Positions 35,830 through 58,676 of a stretch of 64,000 nucleotides of DNA are shown piece by piece. Under the pieces are notes generated by a model. That model worked only from the letters and a program-made list of their open reading frames with translations. It made no database searches and was not told where the DNA came from. Each line of letters begins with the position of its first letter. The first letter of the stretch is position 1. This DNA is from a virus. Made by a program: the position numbers and the translations under genes. The stretch covers positions 1 through 64,000 of IMG/VR virus record IMGVR_UViG_3300047510_003392; one strand, 5' to 3'.

Positions 35830-36210
35830 TGGTGGACGTGAGGGGAGTTGAACCCCTGTGCTGTATAATATAACTACAACCATATACATGCTTATCTCTT
35901 ATAATCCGACTAAGTTTGGTAGAGCACCACTTAGAAGTTGAGGACTCGTGTTTCTCGCTGTTGTTACGACCCTCGTCCTTACAACAGCAAGCAGATGGTC
36001 GAGCGTTTTATTCTATATATCTGCGTCAATAGATAAAACGGGTAGCAACTTAGGCTACAGCAACTTCGCTCTTACGGCTTACGCTTAGGAACGATGTCTT
36101 AGCAAGATTTCTCTTAGCATTTATTTTTTCCAACGGGTATTATACAGAGACATTAGACTCTGTGCATGCGGACTGCATCTACACTATATAGTAGAATCCA
36201 GAACACGCCC
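35830..36210 (-). ncRNA. ssrA: tmRNA; tag peptide (A)AKRNLAKTSFLSVSRKSEVAVA* at 36118-36050
   Basis: 5' GGGCGTG pairs with 3' CACGTCC-ACCA incl. G3.U Ala determinant; GGATTCTAC after acceptor; T arm AGGGG-TTCAACT-CCCCT; 381 nt; AUAAAU before GCU resume codon. Confidence 0.93.
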
Positions 36211-44712: not shown

Positions 44713-45519
44713 TTATTCTGGTGCAATAAATCCAACCTTCTCCACGATTTCTTTACCTTTTGGACTTAGTGTAAACTCTATAAACTTTGCTGCTTGAGGA
44801 CTTGGTGCTGCATTTACATAATAAAATGTTGGACGAGCATATGGATATGTTTTCTTTAGTATAGACTCCTTGGTTGGCAAAGCATTATCAATCGGCACAA
44901 CTTTTATGCCGGGTGATTTGATATATGCCAATCCAACATAACCAATGGCATTTGGATTTTTACTTACTTCAGCGAGGATTTGTTCATTGCCAGCCAACTT
45001 TTGTGATGACTTTACATAATCACGCTTGTTCATTGCCATTTCCTTGAAGTCGGAATATGTGCCAGAAGATGTATTTCTGGTATAGATTGAAATCTTACCT
45101 TGCTTTCCACCAATCATAGCCCAATCAGTTACATCGCCTGTAAATATTTGTTCTATTTGGCGGCGAGATAGTTTGGCTATTGGATTTTTTGCATTCACGA
45201 TTATAGCCATTCCATCATATGCGACGATGATTGGCTTTAGTGTGACGCCTTTTGATGCTGCGGTAGACATTTCGGTTGCCTTTGCTCTACGAGAACTCAT
45301 TCCAATGTCTGCTGTGCCATCAATAATAGCAGACAATCCAGTTGTAGAACCTTCGGCGGCAATTTCAAATGCAACATCTTTGTTGAATGTTTTGTACTCT
45401 TCAGCAAGTGTAGGCACAAGCTTTGCTCCAAGCGTATCTGATCCTTTGATAATCAGTTTCTGGGAATAGCCTATTGGGGCGATTAGCAATGCGATTAGTG
45501 ATATTAGTATTTTCTTCAT
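44713..45519 (-). CDS. pstS: Phosphate ABC transporter substrate-binding protein
   Basis: IKGSDT, EGSTTG, ADIGMSSR, RNTSSGT, AIGYVGLAY, YPYARP. Confidence 0.92.
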   Translation of the reverse strand: MKKILISLIALLIAPIGYSQKLIIKGSDTLGAKLVPTLAEEYKTFNKDVAFEIAAEGSTTGLSAIIDGTADIGMSSRRAKATEMSTAASKGVTLKPIIVAYDGMAIIVNAKNPIAKLSRRQIEQIFTGDVTDWAMIGGKQGKISIYTRNTSSGTYSDFKEMAMNKRDYVKSSQKLAGNEQILAEVSKNPNAIGYVGLAYIKSPGIKVVPIDNALPTKESILKKTYPYARPTFYYVNAAPSPQAAKFIEFTLSPKGKEIVEKVGFIAPE

Positions 45520-45525
45520 AATATA

Positions 45526-46761
45526 TTAGAACTGAATTTGTAGTTGCGAACGAACTCCGCGTGTTGTGGCTTTGGTTGTATTATTCTTTACTTCGCCAGA
45601 TAATGCCCCAAGTTGGAACTTCATATCTTGACCTCTGATATACCAGTTTGCTCCAACATAATATTCATTGAAAAGGTTCATATTTGCTGAAGCTGGTGCT
45701 GAACGAACAACATCGCTTAGATTTACTCCACGGTTGTCTGTATCAAGACGCTGATATCTAAAAACAAACTCAATGGTTTCATTGAAATATACCGTAGGTT
45801 GAACAAACCAACCATATGGGCTTGCATCATTATTTCCTGCACCTTTGTCAATATTGGCATACAGATATTCTGCCATCAGAGTATATCTTAGATATGATAC
45901 GTCAAGATATAAAGAGTGTATGCTCAAATCATATCCCTTTCCTATGTTGGATACTCCAAATCCACCTTGGTCTGGTAATATACCTATGCCATATCCAATA
46001 ATAGCATTTCCATTTTCAGGCAGCTTGGCGGTAAATCCAACATTTCCCCATAATGCCTTTTTGTTGTTGCCTGCATTTCCAGATGAAGAAGCACCAGCAA
46101 ATGTTTCATCTCTTTGTGGGTTTGTTATTGCCGCACTATATACAAGACCATATTTGTTTGTTAGTTCTTTTTTACCATCAACAAATACTCCTATACGATA
46201 GCTTGCTGCACCCAATCTTCTGCCATTGTTGCTTTCAACGAAATATCTTGTTACTCCAGAACGTTCTATTGAACGTAGATTGCCGCTGGTTGCTCTTTCT
46301 TCGTATGCGACATTTACTTTTCTAAGACCAAAGTTAAAAGTCAAATCTGGCGTTGGTTTATATTCTACAATAGCGTCGTCATATCCACCACTCGCAAAAT
46401 CATACGTCATTGTTGCTCCCCAGCCAGCACCTACGCCAGCCTTGAGTGTAAAATACATACGGCGTGTAAAAAACTGGTCAGTATATGCTGGCTTGGCTGC
46501 GGTATGAACATCTGTGCTTAGATTAGCATACTGAAGTTGCATTCTCATACCTACGCTCAATCTATCCGTGGATTTTCCGCCAGCGATGGCTTGTGATGGT
46601 ATTGTATTATTTTCTCGCACCAAATCAGCACGTATATCTTCTGCCTCCTGATTGGTTAGAATACCTTTTCGTATAAGTGCTTCAATAAGAGCACCGCTGT
46701 CTTGAGCGAGAGAAGGTATGATTAGCAACGCAAATATCAATGGATATAGAATTTTCTTCAT
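45526..46761 (-). CDS. Phosphate-selective porin (OprO/P-like)
   Basis: Signal peptide, AQDSGALIEALIRKGIL N-terminal helix, RRMYF, TSSGNLRSIERS-type segment, GANWY, C-terminal Phe; directly upstream of pstS. Confidence 0.78.
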   Translation of the reverse strand: MKKILYPLIFALLIIPSLAQDSGALIEALIRKGILTNQEAEDIRADLVRENNTIPSQAIAGGKSTDRLSVGMRMQLQYANLSTDVHTAAKPAYTDQFFTRRMYFTLKAGVGAGWGATMTYDFASGGYDDAIVEYKPTPDLTFNFGLRKVNVAYEERATSGNLRSIERSGVTRYFVESNNGRRLGAASYRIGVFVDGKKELTNKYGLVYSAAITNPQRDETFAGASSSGNAGNNKKALWGNVGFTAKLPENGNAIIGYGIGILPDQGGFGVSNIGKGYDLSIHSLYLDVSYLRYTLMAEYLYANIDKGAGNNDASPYGWFVQPTVYFNETIEFVFRYQRLDTDNRGVNLSDVVRSAPASANMNLFNEYYVGANWYIRGQDMKFQLGALSGEVKNNTTKATTRGVRSQLQIQF

Positions 46762-46777
46762 ACATCCATACATAGCG

Positions 46778-46817
46778 ATTATAAAAATCTGTGACTATGC
46801 TGTCACTAACTTGTAAC
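46778..46817 (-). promoter_or_regulatory. Pho-box-like promoter
   Basis: GTNAC half-sites at 46791, 46802, 46813 (exact 11-bp period; ctgtgac/ctgtcac/ttgtaac) followed 7 nt later by TATAAT on the minus strand. Confidence 0.7.
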
Positions 46818-49907: not shown

Positions 49908-50354
49908 TTATATCTTATAATCTTCGTGCTGTATGCTCTTTAGATTATTGTGTATATAATCTACCCAATAATCAAGTTCGTGTGATTCATCTACTTTCAA
50001 ATGATATTCATTTGGTTGCGTAAACAACTTTGTTGTATCACTAAAATCTCGCACCGGTTTTCTTGCCATTAATATTACATAAGCATCTTTGGCTCCAAAT
50101 GCTTCTCGTGCTGCTGCTGTAGGACATACAAAATCTGCTATGGCATATACACCTGTTCTATTTACGATATCGCACAATATGCCCATTCTTTTTGCGTGTT
50201 CTATTCTATCAGCTACATCAAAAGTAAGATCTTTATTTATTTTGGCTCTTATTTCATCGGCATTGAAATGAACAGCGTTCATTGCTTTTGCCAACGCAGT
50301 AGATAATGTTGTTTTGCCCGAACCGGGTAGTCCCATAACAAGTATTTTTTTCAT
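49908..50354 (-). CDS. Adenylylsulfate kinase-like protein
   Basis: MGLPGSGKTT, FNADEIR...DLTF...DRIEHAKRM, ADFVCP. Confidence 0.75.
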   Translation of the reverse strand: MKKILVMGLPGSGKTTLSTALAKAMNAVHFNADEIRAKINKDLTFDVADRIEHAKRMGILCDIVNRTGVYAIADFVCPTAAAREAFGAKDAYVILMARKPVRDFSDTTKLFTQPNEYHLKVDESHELDYWVDYIHNNLKSIQHEDYKI

Positions 50355-50397
50355 AATATTTAAAATATAAATTATTTTTTAATTCTTCAATTTATAA

Positions 50398-51102
50398 TTA
50401 CATCCACTTGCCATAAATTTTATAATCTTCCGCATATCTTTTTTTTACAAATTCTTCTATAATTTTTGATGTCTCGTACTTCTCTACTTTGTTGCTATTG
50501 AAATGAAATTTTGGTAATGACTTTGCACTTTTTTCTTCCATATATTTTTTAACCTTATCCATTTCATTGATATTGAATATATCCGAAAACACAGTTGGAT
50601 CTCTGCCAATACTCTGTACAATAGAGTTGGTGTGACTGATTGCTTTTTTCCAAGCCATTTCACGATCTGAGGTTTTTGTTTTTATTCCACGAATAAATTC
50701 TTCTACACTTATATATTTTCCAAACACATTATGTCGCATCACAAGATGAGTATATGCACTATAAAATCTAGAAAGAGGGTCACGGATAACACAAAAAGAT
50801 TTGGTACTGTCGTTTTTTTTACGACGACGAGGTATTTCCAAATGCTGCAATCGCTTGATTATTCTTCTTTGGATTGGAGATTTTCTTTTTAGCATCGCTC
50901 TGTCAACCGCACCATTATAAGTGGAAAATTCCACATTCATGTCAGATATTTTTTCGTTATTGACTTTGGCAATTGCCTCTATTTCTTTATATACTCCATC
51001 ATCGTTAATGAGTTCAATCCATCCATTGATGGTAGTGTTACCACATTTAAACAAACGATAATACAAAAGTTCATCGGGTATTACTTGAATTATTTTTGGC
51101 AT
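50398..51102 (-). CDS. Sulfotransferase family 2-like protein
   Basis: KCGNTT, VIRDPLSRFYSAY, YAEDY. Confidence 0.72.
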   Translation of the reverse strand: MPKIIQVIPDELLYYRLFKCGNTTINGWIELINDDGVYKEIEAIAKVNNEKISDMNVEFSTYNGAVDRAMLKRKSPIQRRIIKRLQHLEIPRRRKKNDSTKSFCVIRDPLSRFYSAYTHLVMRHNVFGKYISVEEFIRGIKTKTSDREMAWKKAISHTNSIVQSIGRDPTVFSDIFNINEMDKVKKYMEEKSAKSLPKFHFNSNKVEKYETSKIIEEFVKKRYAEDYKIYGKWM

Positions 51103-51114
51103 GTTTAATATATA

Positions 51115-52014
51115 CTATCCATCTTCTCTTCTATCTCTAAAATATTGTAGAATTAGTTCTGTATTATAAGTATTGTTGTTTGCTAGTTCGAGTATTCCTT
51201 GCGAGTTAATATATATGTCTTTTAGAGTTAATTCGGGAACGGACGAATATCGCGTTTTATATTTTCTGTGTTCGAAGTTTCCGTGCCATTCGTGATAAAT
51301 TATACCATTTATATATGCTACATCATTTAGTATGTAATCTTTTATTGCAGTTTTCCAATTTATATATTGATGGCTATCGTCGTGAATTTTTGAATTTACT
51401 ATATCTCGAATGCGGTCTGTTTTTGGTGTATCAAATATGCTGTGAACGAACATATTATCTCCTCCGCCTAAAAAACAATATGGATATAATCCACCGTGTT
51501 TCCACATTTCTCTTCTAGCCGCCCAAGCATAACCAACACTCCCATTAACTTGCAAATTATTATGCGAGATAAATGCTCGGTGTATCAAATTATTCATAAA
51601 AGATTGGCGTACTTCTTTTATTTTTCCATACTCATCTGTGACGGATACTTTGTTATACATCTGCACTAATTTGACACTATTCAACGCGATAGAAGTTTGA
51701 TCGTACCAGTCATCGTTTGAAAAAAATATGTCGTGGTCAATCCACGCAATTTTGCTATATTTTTCGGGTATATAATCGACGCAAGAATTTATGCACGCCT
51801 CTTTTTGAAAGAATATATTTTTCTCTGAAACTTTTATTTTCCTTATGGAATCTATATCTTTGGTCTCAAAAGAATCGGACAGCGACAATTCTATTCCATA
51901 TAAAGGTATATTTTTTGATTTTATATATCTTAAAAATCTATGTAAATTTCTAGACAATGATTTATAACCTACCCAGTTATAGTGGACTACTACTATTGCC
52001 ATATCGTTTTCCAT
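51115..52014 (-). CDS. Putative glycosyltransferase (GT-A)
   Basis: FQKEACIN, IAWIDHDI, GYAWAARR, GGGD, HEWHG. Confidence 0.65.
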   Translation of the reverse strand: MENDMAIVVVHYNWVGYKSLSRNLHRFLRYIKSKNIPLYGIELSLSDSFETKDIDSIRKIKVSEKNIFFQKEACINSCVDYIPEKYSKIAWIDHDIFFSNDDWYDQTSIALNSVKLVQMYNKVSVTDEYGKIKEVRQSFMNNLIHRAFISHNNLQVNGSVGYAWAARREMWKHGGLYPYCFLGGGDNMFVHSIFDTPKTDRIRDIVNSKIHDDSHQYINWKTAIKDYILNDVAYINGIIYHEWHGNFEHRKYKTRYSSVPELTLKDIYINSQGILELANNNTYNTELILQYFRDRREDG

Positions 52015-52070
52015 ATCAATATATATAAAATTTATATATAATGGTTAACCCGAGTAGTAGTATTTATATT

Positions 52071-52156
52071 TGGTGCTAGGGGCGGGATTCGAACCCGCGA
52101 AGCCTTACGGCGAGAGCTTATGAAACTCCTTGTTTTAGCCACTTACCTACCCTAAC
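52071..52156 (-). tRNA. tRNA with CAT anticodon and long variable arm (Ile2/Met, identity uncertain)
   Basis: GTTAGGG/CCCTAGC-ACCA, loop TTCATAA, V-arm GCC-GTAA-GGC. Confidence 0.8.
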
Positions 52157-52160
52157 AATT

Positions 52161-52254
52161 TGGTAGTCCCAGAGGGAATCGAACCCCCGCTCGGCACTAA
52201 TCAGGTGCGCACAGGTTATAAATCTGTCGGTGCTTCCAGTTACACTATGGGACC
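52161..52254 (-). tRNA. tRNA-Ile(TAT) with long variable arm
   Basis: GGTCCCA/TGGGACT-ACCA, loop TTTATAA, V-arm GCAC-CTGATTA-GTGC. Confidence 0.8.
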
Positions 52255-52305
52255 AAAAGTAAAGAACGATGATAAGTATGGATATTTTTCGTCAGAAGTC
52301 AATAA

Positions 52306-53298
52306 CTATTTTTCAATTAAGTTTTGTTTGAATATTTTCCAGCAGTTTTCCCAAGTCCAATATGAACCATTCATCGCAACTATATCACGGTTTAGTTTTA
52401 GCGATTTGTTGATACAATCTTCAAGATTATCTCCCATATATCCAGTCAATCCATCTTGAACAATATCTATTGGACCAGAAACAGGATATGCTGCTATTGG
52501 CGTGCCTAAACTCATTGCTTCTATCAAAACTATACCAAATGTGTCTGTTTTGCTGGGAAAACAAAATACATCCGCGTTTATATATTCATTTGCTAAATCT
52601 TTTCCGGTTTTGTATCCAAGGAACTTTACATTTTTATATTTTTTCTCTAAATGTTTTCTATATGGGCCATCACCAACCAAGCGAACTTCATATTTGTCTT
52701 GTAGAACACACAAGTCATCCAGATTTTTTTCAAGGGATATTCTGCCAACATATAGCACAACAGGAACTTCATTATTTTTTCTTTGCGTTGTTGGCGTCAG
52801 CAGATTTTTATCAACACCTCTTGTCCATATAACCATATCAACGTCAAAATTGTTTTTACTCAGTTCATTCATCATTGACTTGGTAGTAACCAATACTCTG
52901 CCAGAATGTTTATGAAACCATCTTACATAAGAATATGTGATACACTTTGGTATTTTATACATTTCATTCACATACTCTGGAAACTTTGTGTGATATGAAG
53001 TGTTGTATTTGTATTTCTTACTATCACAATATAGTTTGGCGAAAAGTCCAAGCGGACCTTCGGTGGAAATATGAATATAGTCTGGATTGTATTCTTCTAT
53101 CTTTTTTCCTAATCCGAATGGCAGGCTCATTTTTACTTCTGGATATCTTGGCATACTAAAATGCTTATACATTTCCGGTGAAATAAAGCATACCGTATAT
53201 CCATCATTTTCCGCCTGTATCTTTATATTCTTGTATGTAGTTACAACGCCGTTTATTTGCGTGAAAAGATTATCCGTTACTATTAGTATCTTTTTCAT
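52306..53298 (-). CDS. agt: GT4 diacylglycerol glycosyltransferase (Agt-like)
   Basis: IVTD...QINGVVTT, PRYPEVKMSL, IHISTEGPLGL, TSYHTKFPEY, YVRWFH, WTRGVD, VGRISLEKNL, FPSKTDTFG.V.IEA, AAYPV.GP. Confidence 0.8.
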   Translation of the reverse strand: MKKILIVTDNLFTQINGVVTTYKNIKIQAENDGYTVCFISPEMYKHFSMPRYPEVKMSLPFGLGKKIEEYNPDYIHISTEGPLGLFAKLYCDSKKYKYNTSYHTKFPEYVNEMYKIPKCITYSYVRWFHKHSGRVLVTTKSMMNELSKNNFDVDMVIWTRGVDKNLLTPTTQRKNNEVPVVLYVGRISLEKNLDDLCVLQDKYEVRLVGDGPYRKHLEKKYKNVKFLGYKTGKDLANEYINADVFCFPSKTDTFGIVLIEAMSLGTPIAAYPVSGPIDIVQDGLTGYMGDNLEDCINKSLKLNRDIVAMNGSYWTWENCWKIFKQNLIEK

Positions 53299-54037
53299 TA
53301 TAGTGTATCAACTCAAATGTTCCATTATGGTGTTCTACTATGGCGGTCAATGATTCTACCCAATCGCCGCAGTTCATATAATGAACATCATTTATATGTT
53401 TCATTTCTGGATGATGTATATGACCGCATATTACGCCAACATATCCTTTTCTTTTACAATGATTGGATATATTAGTCTCAAACTTGAATATGAAATCAAC
53501 GGCCTTTTTGACGCGATGTTTTAGATATTTGCTGAAACTCCAATAACCAAATCCAAGTTTATGTCTTATCCAGTTATATTTTGTATTTAGTGCAAGAATA
53601 AAGTCATATCCTTTGTCTCCAAGAAAACTAAGCCACGGAGCCAATCTTGTTATACCATCAAATAAATCTCCGTGAACAACAAGATATTTTTCACCATATA
53701 CACTAATATGTTCTATTTCATTACATAACTTGATGTTTCCTACTTCAAGTTCATATGGCAGCATCAACCTGAAAAACTCATCGTGATTGCCAATAACATA
53801 TACTATTTTGGTATCATTACGATGTAGTTTCAACAATCGTCTAATAACTTCAGAATGGCTGTTTTTCCATTTTGACCTGTTTTGCTGAAACTTCCAACCG
53901 TCTATGACATCACCGACAAGATATAGAGTCTCGCAACTGTTACATTTTAGAAAATTTTCTACCTCTTTCGCCTTGCTATTTTTAGAACCGAGATGCAGGT
54001 CGGATATAAAAATAGAGCGATATTTAGGTAGTTTCAT
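53270..54037 (-). CDS. plcP: PlcP-like phospholipase C (LpxH-like metallophosphoesterase)
   Basis: YRSIFISDLHLG, LYLVGDVIDGW, GNHDE, HGDLFD, WLSFLGD..Y, GYWSFSKYLKHRVKKAV, CGHIHH, NCGDWVESLTAIVEH. Confidence 0.8.
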   Translation of the reverse strand: MKLPKYRSIFISDLHLGSKNSKAKEVENFLKCNSCETLYLVGDVIDGWKFQQNRSKWKNSHSEVIRRLLKLHRNDTKIVYVIGNHDEFFRLMLPYELEVGNIKLCNEIEHISVYGEKYLVVHGDLFDGITRLAPWLSFLGDKGYDFILALNTKYNWIRHKLGFGYWSFSKYLKHRVKKAVDFIFKFETNISNHCKRKGYVGVICGHIHHPEMKHINDVHYMNCGDWVESLTAIVEHHNGTFELIHYNEKDTNSNG

Positions 54038-54340
54038 TTAGTCCGCTTTATCTCCAAACATAAACTTGTTGGCAATAACATCTATGTTATGAAATGCTAT
54101 GCTAACCTTATCTATCATCCAAGGGTCTAACTTTACAGTTTCACTTGCCATAATCTCTTTTATACGCTTACACTTTTCTTCTATGGCAGTTAGTTGATAT
54201 TCAATCATATCCTGCTGGCGTTCTGGATTTAGTTCAACGTCATCCTTTATCATTTTCTGTCCCTTGAACCAGTCCTGATCCATTGCGGCTGTTTCTTCTA
54301 CAATTTCACGAATAAGTGCTTTAAGTTCTGATTTCTTCAT
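54038..54340 (-). CDS. Hypothetical protein with MKKSELKALIREIVEE leader
   Basis: True start at 54340 after TATTTATT motif. Confidence 0.7.
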   Translation of the reverse strand: MKKSELKALIREIVEETAAMDQDWFKGQKMIKDDVELNPERQQDMIEYQLTAIEEKCKRIKEIMASETVKLDPWMIDKVSIAFHNIDVIANKFMFGDKAD

Positions 54341-54364
54341 ATAATAATAAATATATACACCAAA

Positions 54365-54394
54365 CAAAAAAACCCAGCATTTACGCTGGGTTTT
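54365..54394 (-). terminator. Intrinsic terminator
   Basis: aaaacccagc-atttac-gctgggtttt. Confidence 0.7.
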
Positions 54395-54419
54395 CGTGAG
54401 TTGATATATATTAACTATA

Positions 54420-56384
54420 TCAAGGCTTTGGAGGCAGGAATGTGCCTGTACCAGCATTGACTGGATATACTCCACTCAAGTTGGCAGCAAAACTCAATGC
54501 ACTCAAATCTGTTACTCCCTTGGCATTGAATGTAAGTGCCGAGGTCTTTAGCAGATTGGACAGCGTGATACTGCCACCCGCAGTCAGGGTCAAGGGGCCG
54601 ACCACAGAGTTGGTCGCCTGTGCAGATGTATTGAAGATGTCCGCACCGCTGGTGACGCTAGTAACGCCGCCGTTCAATAGACCAATGTTAGCAGAAGCAA
54701 GTTCAACAACATTGATTGCACCGGTACCAGTAGTGATAGAGATCAAGCCAAAGTTGTTGTTTGGCTGAGTCAGTGCCACTTCAGCATTGTTGGTGTTTAC
54801 AGTAACATTACCACGAACATCAGCAGATGTAGCAGGTACTTGAGTAACTGTGGAGCCCTCAAGACCAACTGTAGATACAGTCAAGTTACCACCAACAACG
54901 GTAGTACCAAGAACTGTGCTGCGAGCCTGTGTGATATTAGCATCAGCAGTAGCAGTTAGCGTAACATTACCGAGGTTGTTTAGACCAGCAGGGTCGTTAA
55001 GAGTAACATTGCCACCAGACAGATTGCTAGTAGCAGCAGTCACACGGCTAGTAGCCAGCAACTGTACGATGTCGTTCTTGCTAGCAGCAACCAGATTGCC
55101 AGTAACAGCAACACGGTTCAAGTTCAGCGTAGCGTCTTCAAGGATAGTAGCATTACCACCAACGGTCAGACTTACAGGACCAAAACTGTGCTTGGCGCGT
55201 GTAATATTAGTGTCGCCAGTTGTAACAAAGGCTGTTGGACCGTATACGAACAGTCCTTCAGCACCATCAACGATGCTAGGAGCGGTGAATGTAGTGTTAC
55301 CTGTGCTAGCAATAGCAACCTTATTCAGCGAGACGCGGGAGTTGGCAGATACATTAGTATCACCAGTTCCGCTGCTGGCAACATCAGTAAGATTTACCAT
55401 GTTACCAGACAATGTCAGGTTACCAGAAGCAAGTGCGGTATAGTTAGTAGTAGCAGCAGTGCTGGCTACAACAATATTGTTACCAGACACAGTCACATTT
55501 GTGCTAGAAACTCTGGGTAGAGAAATGTCCTTACCAGACACAGCCAGATTAGCAACATTGAGTGTACCAGTTCCCTGCGTAACTGCACCAGCAGCAATAT
55601 TACCGGTGGCATTGATAGTGATGTTACCCGTGGATGTAATAAATCCATTCGGAGCAATCACGACGCTTCCGCCAGATGTAGACACATCAGTCTTGCCGTT
55701 GAGCACCATGGGAGCAGATGCAGACGAGCCAATCGTGGCTGTGCCACCATAGGTATTGACAACAAGGTTACCAGTTACTACAGCACCACCGATATTAGCA
55801 GCACGCGAAGCAATTGTGATGCTGTCACCAACAGACTGAATGATGGCACCATCATTTACAGTGACACCGTTAACCAGAACGCTGGTGGGTAGATTGTCTT
55901 GGCTGGGCAACTTACCATTGGTATTCCAGTATCCAAGAGATACAGTGGGATCATCCACAGTGCTAACATACAGTCCAGCAACATTGATGGTGCTGGTGCC
56001 GCCGATCAAAACGCCGCCCGGATTAAGGATAAACACTTTGCCATTGGACTCAATAGCACCGTTGATTGTAGATGCTGCTCCGCCAGTAACAATGTTTAGA
56101 ACAGATGAACCGGCAGACGGCAGTGTATATTCGATGCGTTCACCCGTATTGAATGTGCTTGTACCGCTACCAAATGCCTGCCAAGACAACACGGCCTTGT
56201 TTGGTGCAGAAACATTCAGCGTGGTCGCTGTTCCTGTTACATTTACACCCGTTGTGGTTTGTAGATTGCTGACATCAATGCTAGGAATAGCAAAGACATA
56301 ACCAGCGAATACAAACGCCATGAACAAAGAAAAAGTCTTTGTCCAAAACGAGTTATTTCGTGTATTAGTATTATTGTATTTCAT
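54420..56384 (-). CDS. Filamentous-haemagglutinin-like (TpsA) beta-helix protein
   Basis: Signal peptide; AVLSWQAF, SVLNIVTGGAASTINGAIESNGKVFILNPGGVLIG secretion domain; Thr/Gly/Asn/Val beta-helix repeats. Confidence 0.85.
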   Translation of the reverse strand: MKYNNTNTRNNSFWTKTFSLFMAFVFAGYVFAIPSIDVSNLQTTTGVNVTGTATTLNVSAPNKAVLSWQAFGSGTSTFNTGERIEYTLPSAGSSVLNIVTGGAASTINGAIESNGKVFILNPGGVLIGGTSTINVAGLYVSTVDDPTVSLGYWNTNGKLPSQDNLPTSVLVNGVTVNDGAIIQSVGDSITIASRAANIGGAVVTGNLVVNTYGGTATIGSSASAPMVLNGKTDVSTSGGSVVIAPNGFITSTGNITINATGNIAAGAVTQGTGTLNVANLAVSGKDISLPRVSSTNVTVSGNNIVVASTAATTNYTALASGNLTLSGNMVNLTDVASSGTGDTNVSANSRVSLNKVAIASTGNTTFTAPSIVDGAEGLFVYGPTAFVTTGDTNITRAKHSFGPVSLTVGGNATILEDATLNLNRVAVTGNLVAASKNDIVQLLATSRVTAATSNLSGGNVTLNDPAGLNNLGNVTLTATADANITQARSTVLGTTVVGGNLTVSTVGLEGSTVTQVPATSADVRGNVTVNTNNAEVALTQPNNNFGLISITTGTGAINVVELASANIGLLNGGVTSVTSGADIFNTSAQATNSVVGPLTLTAGGSITLSNLLKTSALTFNAKGVTDLSALSFAANLSGVYPVNAGTGTFLPPKP

Positions 56385-56509
56385 ATTTATTTTTATGTAT
56401 TTGTCTTTTACGACTTTGAACCGATAAATATGCAGATTTATACGACTAAATCAAGCAAAAACTTCTTATATATATTTTTATATATACGATTTGATATATA
56501 TTATCACTT

Positions 56510-56935
56510 ATGTACACATATAAATGCCGCATCAACAAAGTTTTAGACGGTGACACCGTTGAAATAGATTTGGACTTGGGTTTCAATACGACTCTTGCTA
56601 ACCAAAAAGTAAGATTGCTTGGTATAGACGCACCAGAGTCTCGTACAACAAATAAAGAAGAAAAAGTGCGTGGTAATATTTCTAAAAAGAAACTACAAGA
56701 AAAACTACCTATAGGCTGTTCTGTAAAGATTATTACTCACAAAAACGACAACAACGACGACAAGTTTGGTCGCATACTTGGCGAGTTTATTCTTGATGAT
56801 GGCACCAATCTAAACAAATGGATGATAGAGAATAACTATGCTGTTCCTTATCTTGGTGAAAATAAGGAACTGGTGCAAGAAGCACATCAAATCAATAAGA
56901 AGAAACTTATTGAGCGTGGCGAGTTGACTGCTTAA
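56510..56935 (+). CDS. Thermonuclease (SNase-like)
   Basis: KVLDGDTV..DLGF....VRLLGIDAPE, KFGRILG, N..MI...YAVPY. Confidence 0.88.
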   Translation: MYTYKCRINKVLDGDTVEIDLDLGFNTTLANQKVRLLGIDAPESRTTNKEEKVRGNISKKKLQEKLPIGCSVKIITHKNDNNDDKFGRILGEFILDDGTNLNKWMIENNYAVPYLGENKELVQEAHQINKKKLIERGELTA

Positions 56936-57612
56936 CTATCCAACTCTCTTGGGTCGATTATATTCCAGCCATCTGGCTTGCGGGTGTCACCGAACTTACG
57001 ATTATACATCCAATATAGTTTGGTGATTATTTCTGGCCATACAAACACTTTTGCGTTTGTGCCAATCAACTTGAGTGTGCTCTTATCAAAATATCTTCCG
57101 CGAATAATGATTGGACCGCCATCTTTGTTTTTACAGTTGATAAAAGTAAATCTGCGTGTCTTTGGACGATCTTGCTGGTCATAGATGCTATAATCACCAA
57201 GTAGTATGTCGTTGAATACACAACTGCTAAAAGTAACATCGTGTACGCCGCCCTTTATACCAATATCACATACTTCATTTAATGCATATGGCGATTTGAT
57301 TGTTTGACGCACACCATCATTTACAAATGTGCAATCTGTAAAAGCAACATTAGCTCCACGAACCATATCAAATGCTCGTGCGGTTCCATTTTTGAATATA
57401 CAGTTCTTATATTCAAGACCAAACGTTAGTGATGCTTTACCGCCCCACCTAGTGTCTTGACCGTCTATAGTGCAGTTGTTTACAGCACTATCATCATTTT
57501 GACTAAAGCAGAAAACAGATAATCCGTCGGTTCTGTTGTCTGGTGTATCTGGATTAAACGTGTTTGATTTATCAAACGTTTGATTTTCTATTACGATATT
57601 TGTTGTAGCCAT
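56932..57612 (-). CDS. Parallel beta-helix protein
   Basis: Repeated NCTI/NCIF/DCTF/SCVF motifs. Confidence 0.6.
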   Translation of the reverse strand: MATTNIVIENQTFDKSNTFNPDTPDNRTDGLSVFCFSQNDDSAVNNCTIDGQDTRWGGKASLTFGLEYKNCIFKNGTARAFDMVRGANVAFTDCTFVNDGVRQTIKSPYALNEVCDIGIKGGVHDVTFSSCVFNDILLGDYSIYDQQDRPKTRRFTFINCKNKDGGPIIIRGRYFDKSTLKLIGTNAKVFVWPEIITKLYWMYNRKFGDTRKPDGWNIIDPRELDS

Positions 57613-57653
57613 AATGGCTATAAATATCGTTTTTGAGGAAAAATTTACACGGC

Positions 57654-57902
57654 TTAGTTTGTAGGTGCGCTACTTGGTGTTACTTCGGGCGTAGCCATCG
57701 GAAATTCGACATTATTTTCAAGTTTCTTGCTTGATGCAAAATAACTAGCAACTTCTGTCATAGTCAATCCAGTAGACTCCAACAATGGATGTAAATAGTC
57801 TACTCTATTTTGACGAGTGTTTTTGTGACCGCCCAATTTATCCAAAAGATGTGCCATGTTCCAAGAAGAGCTGGCCATAGCGATGAGTTCTTGCGAGTTC
57901 AT
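57654..57902 (-). CDS. Small hypothetical protein
   Basis: 82 aa, TATTTATA upstream; resembles 58766-59053. Confidence 0.6.
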   Translation of the reverse strand: MNSQELIAMASSSWNMAHLLDKLGGHKNTRQNRVDYLHPLLESTGLTMTEVASYFASSKKLENNVEFPMATPEVTPSSAPTN

Positions 57903-57977
57903 ATTTTATTTAATATAAATATAAGCCAGTTAACATAAAATATAATCATAGATTATAAATTATTTTTATGATAAAAA

Positions 57978-58676
57978 CTAAGGTTTAGTCACAGAATACA
58001 GAAATTTGTTTTTAAACCCAAAAAATTTAAATTCAGATTCTTGTACAAGATCTCTAGTGTGTATTATTTTTACATCAAACCCAGCAGAAACGAGTTTGTT
58101 AAAAAAATCTTGTTTTCCATACAACCTTACTCTGTTTACTTGTCCGTATAATTCTTTTCTTTGTTCCGGAGTATTTGCGCTTTCATGATATATGGTAGTA
58201 TCTCCTTTAGTTGGTATTACAAATATTCCGTTTCCTCCAACTTTCAGCGTTCTGAACATTTCGGAAATTGCGGCAGTATCGTTTTGTATATGTTCTAGTA
58301 CATGACTGCAATATATAAAATCAAAATAGTTATCTTCTATATCCAAACTTGTTAACGCCGAATGATCACAACCAAATTTAAGTTTTAAATCAATCGCGTG
58401 ATAGTTTCTCATTCCAATTTTTTTCAACAAAGGTTCGATGGAATCTTCAGGGCATATATGTAATATTTTTGCTCGCGGAAATAGCCATTTTTCTTGAGAT
58501 GTTATATATTTCCAAGAAAATCTGTGGCGTTCGAGTGAACCACATTTTGGACATTTAGCTTTTGGTCTGGGAGGATTTCCGTGAGGTATAAACTGTTTTA
58601 TTTTGCAATTGCAAATTGTGCAAAATCCTTTTGCGGTAGAGTCGTTTATAGCGTTTTTAATAAAAATTGGAGACAT
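57978..58676 (-). CDS. Class I SAM-dependent methyltransferase
   Basis: CPKCGSLERHR, ILHICPE, FDFIYCSHVLEHI, RTLKVGG, YGQ..RVRLYG. Confidence 0.82.
   Translation of the reverse strand: MSPIFIKNAINDSTAKGFCTICNCKIKQFIPHGNPPRPKAKCPKCGSLERHRFSWKYITSQEKWLFPRAKILHICPEDSIEPLLKKIGMRNYHAIDLKLKFGCDHSALTSLDIEDNYFDFIYCSHVLEHIQNDTAAISEMFRTLKVGGNGIFVIPTKGDTTIYHESANTPEQRKELYGQVNRVRLYGKQDFFNKLVSAGFDVKIIHTRDLVQESEFKFFGFKNKFLYSVTKP

Follow-up and report, generated by a model that had tools for sequence, protein, structure and literature searches.

Operons in which plcP is followed by agt have been described in Phaeobacter (MED193_17359), in the SAR11 strain HTCC7211 (PB7211_983/PB7211_960) and at PA3219-PA3218 and BCAL2364-2366, according to the accessible parts of PMC4796936, PMC8528852 and PMC13691135. 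The same sources give the gene order as plcP-agt-dagK in B. cenocepacia and place PA3219-PA3218 in P. aeruginosa. We analyzed a window of 64,000 nucleotides, positions 1-64,000 of the 73,233-bp IMG/VR virus record IMGVR_UViG_3300047510_003392 (hereafter the contig), and found a viral relative of these operons: a gene for a PlcP-type metallophosphoesterase, followed by a gene for an Agt/GTcp-type glycosyltransferase of family GT4 and preceded by a small open reading frame (ORF). The contig is a fragment from a large, uncultured phage of fresh water as we read it, and the gene pair is common to many phages of aquatic habitats. We consider it probable, at about 0.62, that this cassette is a three-gene viral version of plcP-agt that converts host phospholipids to glycosyl-diacylglycerol during infection.

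Organization of the locus

A sequence-only reading of this DNA had proposed two overlapping genes, and both ORFs are present on the minus strand at exactly the coordinates it gave (Table 1), sharing 29 nt (53270-53298). All motifs that it quoted occur in the translations, namely YRSIFISDLHLG, VGDVIDGW, HGDLFD, GYWSFSKYLKHRVK and NCGDWVES in the phosphoesterase of 255 amino acids (aa), and QINGVV, HISTEGPLG, YHTKFPEY, RWFH and WTRGVD in the 330-aa GT4. The 100-aa acidic ORF in front looks helical by eye (a reading of the sequence, not the output of a prediction tool) and matched no Pfam or NCBIfam family. Since its stop codon TAA is immediately followed by the start codon ATG of the phosphoesterase in a 'taaatg' junction, the locus forms a three-gene unit of small ORF, phosphoesterase and GT4. 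Homologs of the small ORF were found directly upstream of a PlcP homolog in eight viral loci, L002-L009 only. An intrinsic-terminator-like hairpin with a T run, which closes the upstream gene for a TPS-domain protein, marks the upstream edge of the unit, and the genes for tRNA-Ile and tRNA-Met (52071..52254) mark its lower edge.

The phosphoesterase

The 255-aa protein matches Metallophos (E 1.9e-11) as its sole Pfam family. It scores 56 bits against a cut-off of 134 for the LpxH equivalog NF003743 and 42.8 bits against a cut-off of 190.35 for the LpxH equivalog TIGR01854, and its closest PDB match by sequence, P. aeruginosa LpxH, reaches just 32 bits. All five metal motifs are present, and an alignment of 22 viral and cellular sequences shows no variation at residues D13, H15, D43, N84, H85, H122, H206 and H208. 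The AlphaFold model built on the alignment of these 22 sequences, whose pLDDT score (predicted local distance difference test) averages 82, has a calcineurin-like core and an all-helical insertion at ~124-196, between motifs IV and V. In a Foldseek search with this model, the first 24 matches were all LpxH, full length and with E ~1e-10, and Mre11-type nucleases and others came next at ~1e-6, about four orders weaker. The ESM Atlas clusters of the phosphoesterase carry the name 'UDP-2,3-diacylglucosamine hydrolase' only. An LpxH-type fold with its cap, combined with a sequence below the cut-offs, therefore points to a lipid phosphoesterase that is not LpxH.

With E. coli K-12 LpxH (annotated b0524) we searched five cellular genomes known to contain a PlcP-like gene. 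Genome G007 encodes a true LpxH on another contig (E 4.6e-35) besides a PlcP-like gene whose product shares 46% identity with that of the phage. For Rhodopseudomonas telluris (G006), the PlcP-like gene itself was all that the search recovered, with a weak score (E 1.1e-5). Alphaproteobacteria use LpxI in place of LpxH.

The phosphoesterase is 42-52% identical to its cellular homologs. Among the characterized proteins, PA3219 shares 47% identity with the PlcP of Phaeobacter and 46% with that of Sinorhizobium, as given in the accessible parts of PMC4796936, PMC8528852 and PMC13691135; the phage identities lie within the range among characterized members, and the phage protein is thus no further from cellular proteins than proven members are from each other. 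The sequence-only reading had assigned the protein to PlcP, and the scores below both LpxH cut-offs, the long supported branch in the tree described below and the presence of both paralogs in G007 bear this out, supporting a predicted PlcP-type enzyme that is a distinct paralog of LpxH.

The glycosyltransferase

The 330-aa protein matches the Pfam families Glycos_transf_1 (E 1.1e-24) and Glyco_transf_4 (E 7.8e-12). The accessible part of PMC8231724 describes a GTcp clade with a protein of 334 aa, GRVAxEKN and FPSxTDTFG as its motifs, and a His104-Asp256 dyad in which the change of Asp256 to Glu costs >90% of activity. Its donor pocket includes Arg190, Lys195, Thr257, Phe258, Gly259 and Glu264, and its diacylglycerol (DAG)-binding residues are His104, Thr162, Arg163 and Trp320 (PMC8231724). 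The window GT4 carries GRISLEKN at 185-192 and FPSKTDTFG at 247-255. Matching residues to GTcp by motif and by a numbering offset of 1-4, not by direct alignment, we found R186, E190, K191, T253, G255 and E260 invariant in 21 viral and 36 cellular GT4 rows, and F254 in all 21 viral and 33 of the 36 cellular rows. H103 is invariant in the plcP-linked GT4 rows. The window protein has D252 in a column that holds Asp in 15 and Glu in 6 viral rows, and Asp in 33 and Glu in 3 cellular rows. T159 occurs in 20 of the 21 viral rows, R160 is invariant, and W316 is found in 21/21 viral and 35/36 cellular rows. By this matching, H103 and D252 correspond to His104 and Asp256 of GTcp, and T159, R160 and W316 to Thr162, Arg163 and Trp320. 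In the two other GT4s of the window, the His column holds Tyr and the Asp column holds Glu.

The window GT4 is 36-42% identical to cellular plcP-linked GT4s; PA3218 and PA0842 are 41% and 35% identical to Phaeobacter Agt (accessible parts of PMC4796936, PMC8528852 and PMC13691135). The presence of the GTcp-defining residues, together with a clade that unites the protein with plcP-linked GT4s away from the other GT4s of the window, agrees with the earlier Agt-type call and supports a predicted Agt/GTcp-type enzyme, as distinct from a generic GT4.

Gene neighborhoods of relatives

We kept 80 viral and 62 cellular PlcP loci and sorted them by their immediate downstream neighbor, counting genes of the same strand at a distance of up to 1.6 kb. 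GT4 is the downstream neighbor in 35 of the 62 cellular loci (followed by DUF3419 in four of these and by UDP-glucose dehydrogenase in one), DUF3419 in nine (with a methyltransferase next in L086, L093 and L098) and GT2 in three, and nothing was recognized in 15. DUF3419 is the BtaA family. This context of the cellular relatives matches the published plcP-agt operon: the accessible part of PMC4796936 records plcP together with agt, plcP next to different glycosyltransferases, and btaBA at other sites of the genomes. PlcP-like matches in G008 and in five genomes of its phylum, G250, G267, G253, G232 and G256, lie in open frames of 600-700 aa (for instance L103:3849-5771), which may be fusions with an N-terminal domain or may simply reflect the long frames that G+C-rich DNA leaves open; L103 showed no similarity to GT4.

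In the viral set, a glycosyltransferase is directly downstream in 74 of the 80 loci (GT2 in 45, GT4 in 29), UDP-glucose dehydrogenase in three (L017, L021 and L026) and nothing in three. A UDP-glucose dehydrogenase-like gene also follows the PlcP-GT4 pair in L110, a locus of a gammaproteobacterial metagenome-assembled genome (MAG). In this position the enzyme would make UDP-glucuronate, the donor for glucuronosyl-DAG. The viral GT2 partner is a protein of 238 aa (e.g., in L012, L018-L020 and L024; L024:1760-2476) that matches Pfam Glycos_transf_2 and, weakly, Glyco_transf_21 (24.6 bits, cut-off 21.7), and came near the cut-off of no NCBIfam family.

Phylogeny and the search for a cellular donor

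Both trees are short searches without bootstraps; the PlcP tree is an IQ-TREE quick search under LG+G4, with support from the Shimodaira-Hasegawa-like approximate likelihood ratio test (SH-aLRT) only. It contains 120 distinct rows out of 146, with identical rows merged and with duplicate loci and matches of <180 aligned residues left out. The outgroup, three true LpxHs, is set off by a branch of 1.4 + 1.4 changes per column (SH-aLRT 100). A single clade (SH-aLRT 99) unites every one of the 56 distinct viral rows with four rows from MAG contigs, L082, L083, L084 and L115, and inside it the window groups with L002 and L006-L009 (SH-aLRT 99). The four MAG rows are plausibly misbinned phage contigs. 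The MAG labelled Haliscomenobacter (G009) has two T4-type Gp23 genes (C1:49024-50007 and C3:82703-83671), so that this bin contains phage DNA, and it also holds two viral-clade PlcP genes (L082 and L115, on contigs C31 and C110); a Polynucleobacter-labelled MAG has one viral-clade copy on a 6-kb contig (G010 C115).

The GT4 tree (59 rows) brings the 57 plcP-linked rows together (SH-aLRT 95). Its 21 viral rows fall into a single clade with two rows from those MAG contigs (SH-aLRT 99), next to the plcP-linked GT4s of cells, and the window groups with L002/L003, L006-L009 and L010. The two other GT4s of the window, which serve as the sole outgroups, sit on branches of 5-8 changes per column.

For a cellular donor we sampled 474 genomes: 151 from the order of G006, 101 from the phylum of G008, 101 from the phylum of G009 and 121 from the class of G010. 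PlcP homologs were found in 105, 33, 33 and 30 of them, respectively, under E-value limits that differ between the sets. With the MAG contigs of the viral clade set aside, none of the 474 genomes encodes a protein above 52% identity to the phage PlcP. We regard the cassette as probably a long-established viral version of the bacterial plcP-agt operon, belonging to virus-only clades of both proteins.

Selection and distribution

Ratios of nonsynonymous to synonymous substitution rates (dN/dS, Nei-Gojobori), calculated for viral pairs with unsaturated dS, are 0.025-0.059 over 7 pairs of the phosphoesterase gene; over 9 pairs of the GT4 gene, four of them with dS >1.7, they are 0.029-0.18. Both genes are under strong purifying selection and are kept functional. 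A pattern scan of IMG/VR yielded 135 stretches with a PlcP relative. Freshwater or lake metagenome runs from many studies contain about half or more of the sampled words of the stretch, and three such runs, from other studies, contain a ~97% identical variant on one contig that covers the GT4 and phosphoesterase genes and reaches into the small ORF, with intact genes and with indels in intergenic DNA only. Among the runs listed, none from RNA contains 52000-54500. One run labelled 'RNA?', probably DNA, covers only tRNA pieces and 54071-54231 and has no bearing on expression.

Homologs of the phosphoesterase also occur in isolate phages. The homolog in Pelagibacter phage Mosig (L178, MT647606.1 93031-94866) is 46% identical, is annotated 'putative UDP-2,3-diacylglucosamine hydrolase' and lies back to back with a pstS-type gene ('putative phosphate ABC transporter'). 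That of Synechococcus phage S-SRM01 is 35% identical and is annotated in GenBank as LpxH-type. Neither phage has a glycosyltransferase gene beside its PlcP homolog.

Viral setting and surrounding genes

IMG/VR classes the contig as viral, with a CheckV completeness estimate of 32%. It carries HNH endonucleases, a PD-(D/E)XK exonuclease, UvdE and a DnaQ-like exonuclease, and eight tRNA genes between 48157 and 61588 of the window (ARAGORN). A 1247-aa ORF has no match among isolate phages and no Pfam or PHROG family, and thus adds no viral hallmark; a DNA search with positions 50001-58000 of the window against isolate phages gave no match. On a contig without structural genes the viral call rests on IMG/VR, on gene content and on the tree placement of both proteins.

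The cassette itself was found in complete T4-like phages of 170-369 kb. Genome G003 (369,145 bp, terminal repeats, 100% complete) encodes the pair, 65% identical for the phosphoesterase and 58% for the GT4, and has genes for a large terminase and for a T4-type Gp23 (E 2.8e-78) as well. A T4-type Gp23 is present in all seven tested PlcP-bearing virus records that are at least 90% complete, G003 and six more; it was not found in three less complete ones, and neither Gp23 nor Terminase_6N was found in the fragment records G004 and G005. The contig and G003 are not close kin, sharing only 10 of 87 ORFs at E<=1e-5; the cassette pair is by far the best conserved of these, and the others are 26-52% identical over 40-228 residues. 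So few shared ORFs with so conserved a pair fit a cassette common to otherwise unrelated phages. The sequence-only reading had proposed to confirm a viral contig by terminase and capsid genes elsewhere; the contig itself showed neither among the ORFs scanned, and the cassette occurs in complete Gp23-bearing phages, with its proteins inside viral clades.

Other genes of the contig include glycosyltransferases, an aminotransferase, a dehydrogenase, sulfotransferases, an APS kinase and a TPS-domain protein, as well as a PstS-like protein and a phosphate-selective porin (Table 1). The last two confirm the claim that the window holds pstS and a phosphate porin. The nearest Atlas clusters of the porin are mostly from Verrucomicrobiota, which offers a lead, and only a lead, to a possible host in this phylum. 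The Pho-box-like repeat before the porin-pstS pair is the sole such site in the window; a pattern search allowing one mismatch gave three matches against 4.2 expected, which is not above chance, and all three lie at the porin site.

The minus strand at ~6000-26100 holds a long run of sugar-modifying genes (a GT2, GT4s, an aminotransferase, a dehydrogenase and many unassigned ORFs) with an HNH endonuclease at its end, which looks like a very large glycan island for a phage. The APS-kinase, Sulfotransfer_2 and galactose-3-O-sulfotransferase-like genes make up a phage sulfation module near the glycolipid synthase gene. The TPS-domain gene lies in a G+C-richer stretch (0.45, against ~0.35 in its surroundings).

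Table 1. Features of the window and, in the last row, of the contig beyond it
Feature	Position	Strand	Remarks
PlcP-type, LpxH-fold metallophosphoesterase, putative phospholipase C yielding DAG	53270..54037	-	255 aa
Agt/GTcp-type GT4, putative glycosyl-DAG synthase	52306..53298	-	330 aa
Acidic ORF	54038..54340	-	100 aa; no family assigned; ATG at 54340
Intrinsic-terminator-like hairpin and T run	54368..54395	-	12-pair stem, 5 G-C pairs, T tail
TPS secretion domain protein (filamentous-haemagglutinin type)	54420..56384	-	654 aa; own terminator
tRNA-Ile(tat)	52161-52254	-	ARAGORN; directly downstream of GT4; long variable arm
tRNA-Met(cat)	52071-52156	-	ARAGORN; downstream of GT4; long variable arm
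Sulfotransfer_2 gene	50398-51102	-	~1.2 kb downstream of GT4
APS-kinase-like gene	49908-50354	-	
Pho-box-like site	46790..46817	-	three GTnACA hexamers, 11-bp period, beside TTATAAT; before porin-pstS
Porin_O_P phosphate-selective porin	45526-46773	-	Pfam E 6.5e-9
PstS-like gene	44713-45519	-	after porin; PHROG 5385 phosphate transporter subunit, E 3.6e-23
Transfer-messenger RNA (tmRNA)	35830-36210		ARAGORN
Galactose-3-O-sulfotransferase-like gene	67040-67792 (contig)	-	L111:4040-4792; ~13 kb off, on the other side of the pair

Proposed function and alternative explanations

We propose that the phosphoesterase would cleave host glycerophospholipids to DAG and a phosphorylated head group, and that the GT4 would add a sugar from a UDP-sugar to this DAG. 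The product, glucosyl-, galactosyl- or glucuronosyl-DAG, would keep the bilayer intact, and the phosphorus of the head groups would pass via host phosphatases to nucleotide synthesis. The enzyme functions of the pair are well supported by inference; the substrates, the timing and the phosphorus benefit are putative. A role in phosphorus supply is favored by the porin-pstS pair with its Pho-box-like repeat and by the position of the Mosig homolog beside pstS.

Several observations weigh against this proposal. Concerning the contig, no capsid, portal or terminase gene was found on its 73 kb, where 46 ORFs were scanned against Pfam, PHROGs or NCBIfam, and the near-identical records G001 and G002, both fragments, have no Terminase_6N or Gp23 when searched whole. 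Concerning the enzymes, the putative orthology to characterized PlcP and Agt rests on gene context and identity ranges. The GT2 partner, present in 45 of the 80 viral loci, has no assigned acceptor, and in cellular records the plcP-GT2 pairing is seen only on MAG contigs that fall in the viral clade. Concerning the purpose, the large island of glycan and sulfation genes around the cassette would suit a role in surface modification just as well. Exact and one-mismatch Pho-box pattern searches found nothing at the plcP unit of the window, and a looser two-consensus scan of the 520 nt upstream of plcP, which did detect the boxes of the porin, found no Pho-box-like pair in the window, L002, L006 or L008-L011. 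In this phage the lipid unit seems to lie outside the Pho-box control that the porin-pstS operon has. Searches with the PstS and porin of the window and the PstS of Mosig gave no homolog in the 6 kb on either side of PlcP in the 80 viral loci, nor any in the complete phage G003.

Two claims of the sequence-only reading go beyond these data. It had assigned the cassette the purpose of stripping phosphate for the phage genome, which finds no backing in a Pho box at the lipid unit or in pstS or porin linkage across the 80 loci and G003. The 'full swap' that it ascribed to the phage is overstated: PlcP would free phosphorylated head groups, not phosphate, so that, judging from the published pathway, host phosphatases would still be needed, as would host UDP-sugars.

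The same enzymes might serve another purpose, a change of envelope glycolipids that blocks superinfection, alters receptors or stabilizes the membrane. We regard this as unlikely, albeit with several facts in its favor: the unit lies among genes for glycosyltransferases, an aminotransferase, a dehydrogenase, sulfotransferases, an APS kinase and a TPS-domain surface protein, it has neither a Pho-box-like site nor a general linkage to pstS, a pelagimyophage paper reads phage glycosyltransferases and UDP-glucose dehydrogenase, in its accessible part, as host-surface (O-chain) modification, and the accessible parts of PMC9804370 and PMC9938194 tie membrane lipid make-up to phage therapy and phage attachment. 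However, inner-membrane glycolipids would not obviously be exposed to other phages, the Mosig homolog adjoins a pstS-type gene, and the phage of the window has a phosphate porin and PstS as well. It is improbable that the pair acts on some other lipid- or nucleotide-linked substrate, as a UDP- or polyprenyl-sugar pyrophosphatase with a glycan-building glycosyltransferase. The gap between the viral clade and every cellular PlcP sampled (at most 52% identity over 474 genomes), the lack of a specific family for the commonest viral partner, GT2, and the action of the LpxH fold itself on a UDP-linked lipid, as stated in PDB entry titles, would agree with such a substrate. They are set against the retention in the window GT4 of residues crucial for DAG binding in GTcp, a phosphoesterase as near to cellular PlcPs as characterized PlcPs are among themselves, and the UDP-glucose dehydrogenase genes of some viral loci, which could supply the donor for glucuronosyl-DAG. 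A further step beyond glycosyl-DAG, which we rate as quite improbable, would make the cassette the start of a phage-made sulfated glycolipid, with the APS kinase giving 3'-phosphoadenosine 5'-phosphosulfate (PAPS) and one of the sulfotransferases sulfating glycosyl-DAG. Such a product would be an anionic, phosphorus-free stand-in for phosphatidylglycerol, formed without the host phosphate-starvation switch.

The view that the phosphoesterase is LpxH, an auxiliary gene for lipid A and lipopolysaccharide (LPS), accords with the JGI names of its homologs, the GenBank annotation in Mosig and S-SRM01, KEGG-based lists of auxiliary metabolic genes (AMGs) and the LpxH-like fold. It is close to refuted by scores far under both equivalog cut-offs, by the long, fully supported branch and by coexistence with a true LpxH in G007; in the Rhodopseudomonas genome E. 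coli LpxH finds nothing better than the PlcP-like gene (E 1.1e-5), and the cellular relatives stand beside GT4, DUF3419 and methyltransferase genes, not lipid A genes. It is equally hard to maintain that the contig is cellular or misassembled and the pair an ordinary bacterial plcP-agt operon. The lack of any structural phage gene in 73 kb and the many bacterial-type genes (porin, PstS, TPS domain, sugar enzymes) would be expected of such a contig, whereas the IMG/VR class, the 32% CheckV estimate, the eight tRNAs and the tmRNA, the HNH endonucleases and the phage-type exonucleases are not. Moreover, both proteins fall inside viral clades that include complete Gp23-bearing phages, and no cellular genome of the 474 goes beyond 52% identity.

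Significance

If conversion of host phospholipids to glycosyl-DAG is the function of the cassette, large aquatic phages would mine an internal phosphorus store, the membrane phospholipids, with the cell intact and in addition to pstS-based uptake, and the cassette would represent a new class of AMG. Viral 'lpxH' in virome surveys would then stand for lipid renovation, not LPS synthesis, and the glycolipids that serve to indicate phosphorus stress in lakes and oceans would be connected with viral infection. A direct test is possible, since the cultured Pelagibacter phage Mosig has a homolog next to a pstS gene.

Comparison with known systems

We found no paper on a phage-encoded plcP in a literature search that left subscription journals largely uncovered, and supplementary tables may list viral lpxH or plcP more widely. 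In the accessible parts of the respective sources, the S-SRM01 paper does not mention the gene, no mention of it was found in the Mosig genome announcement, and the virocell paper treats phospholipid strategies but does not bring in PlcP. Virome AMG work assigns viral 'lpxH' to LPS biosynthesis, as far as the accessible parts of PMC10653327 and PMC9611531 go. The suggestion that the pair is undescribed as a phage auxiliary system thus stands for printed descriptions, none of which was found, but the gene itself is already present in isolate phages and in virome surveys as 'lpxH'. We read the cassette as a phage version of a known bacterial pathway; this version is apparently unreported in print and is mislabelled LpxH in databases.

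In the bacterial plcP-agt operon as in the phage unit, the phosphoesterase gene comes first and the GT4 gene follows it immediately on the same strand; the two also agree in both protein families and in the catalytic motifs. Identities to cellular proteins are in the same range (42-52% for the phage PlcP and 36-42% for the GT4, against 46-47% and 35-41% among characterized members in the accessible sources). The phage unit differs in being phage-borne, in its virus-only clades, in the extra 100-aa ORF in front and in the absence of dagK; the bacterial operons are Pho-regulated according to the same accessible sources, whereas no Pho box was detected at the phage unit. With GTcp/Agt (SAR11 HTCC7211 WP_008545403.1 and A. 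tumefaciens Atu2297, as described in the accessible part of PMC8231724) the phage GT4 shares its length (~330 against 334 aa), both motifs, a His/Asp dyad whose Asp replaces the Glu that is usual in GT4, and counterparts of the DAG-binding Thr-Arg and Trp.

Like the phage protein, LpxH, the UDP-2,3-diacylglucosamine diphosphatase (e.g., PDB 5b49, 6ph9 and 5k8k), has a calcineurin-like core into which a helical lipid-binding cap is inserted after motif IV and before motif V. It differs from the phage protein in sequence (18-22% identity, with the equivalog cut-offs failed), as a separate paralog and in genomic context. The phage phosphate genes pstS and phoH of cyanophages and pelagimyophages, described in the accessible parts of PMC12379486 and PMC8557907, are likewise host-derived phosphate-stress genes in large aquatic myoviruses; whereas these act on uptake from outside, the plcP-agt cassette would act on the internal pool of membrane lipids.

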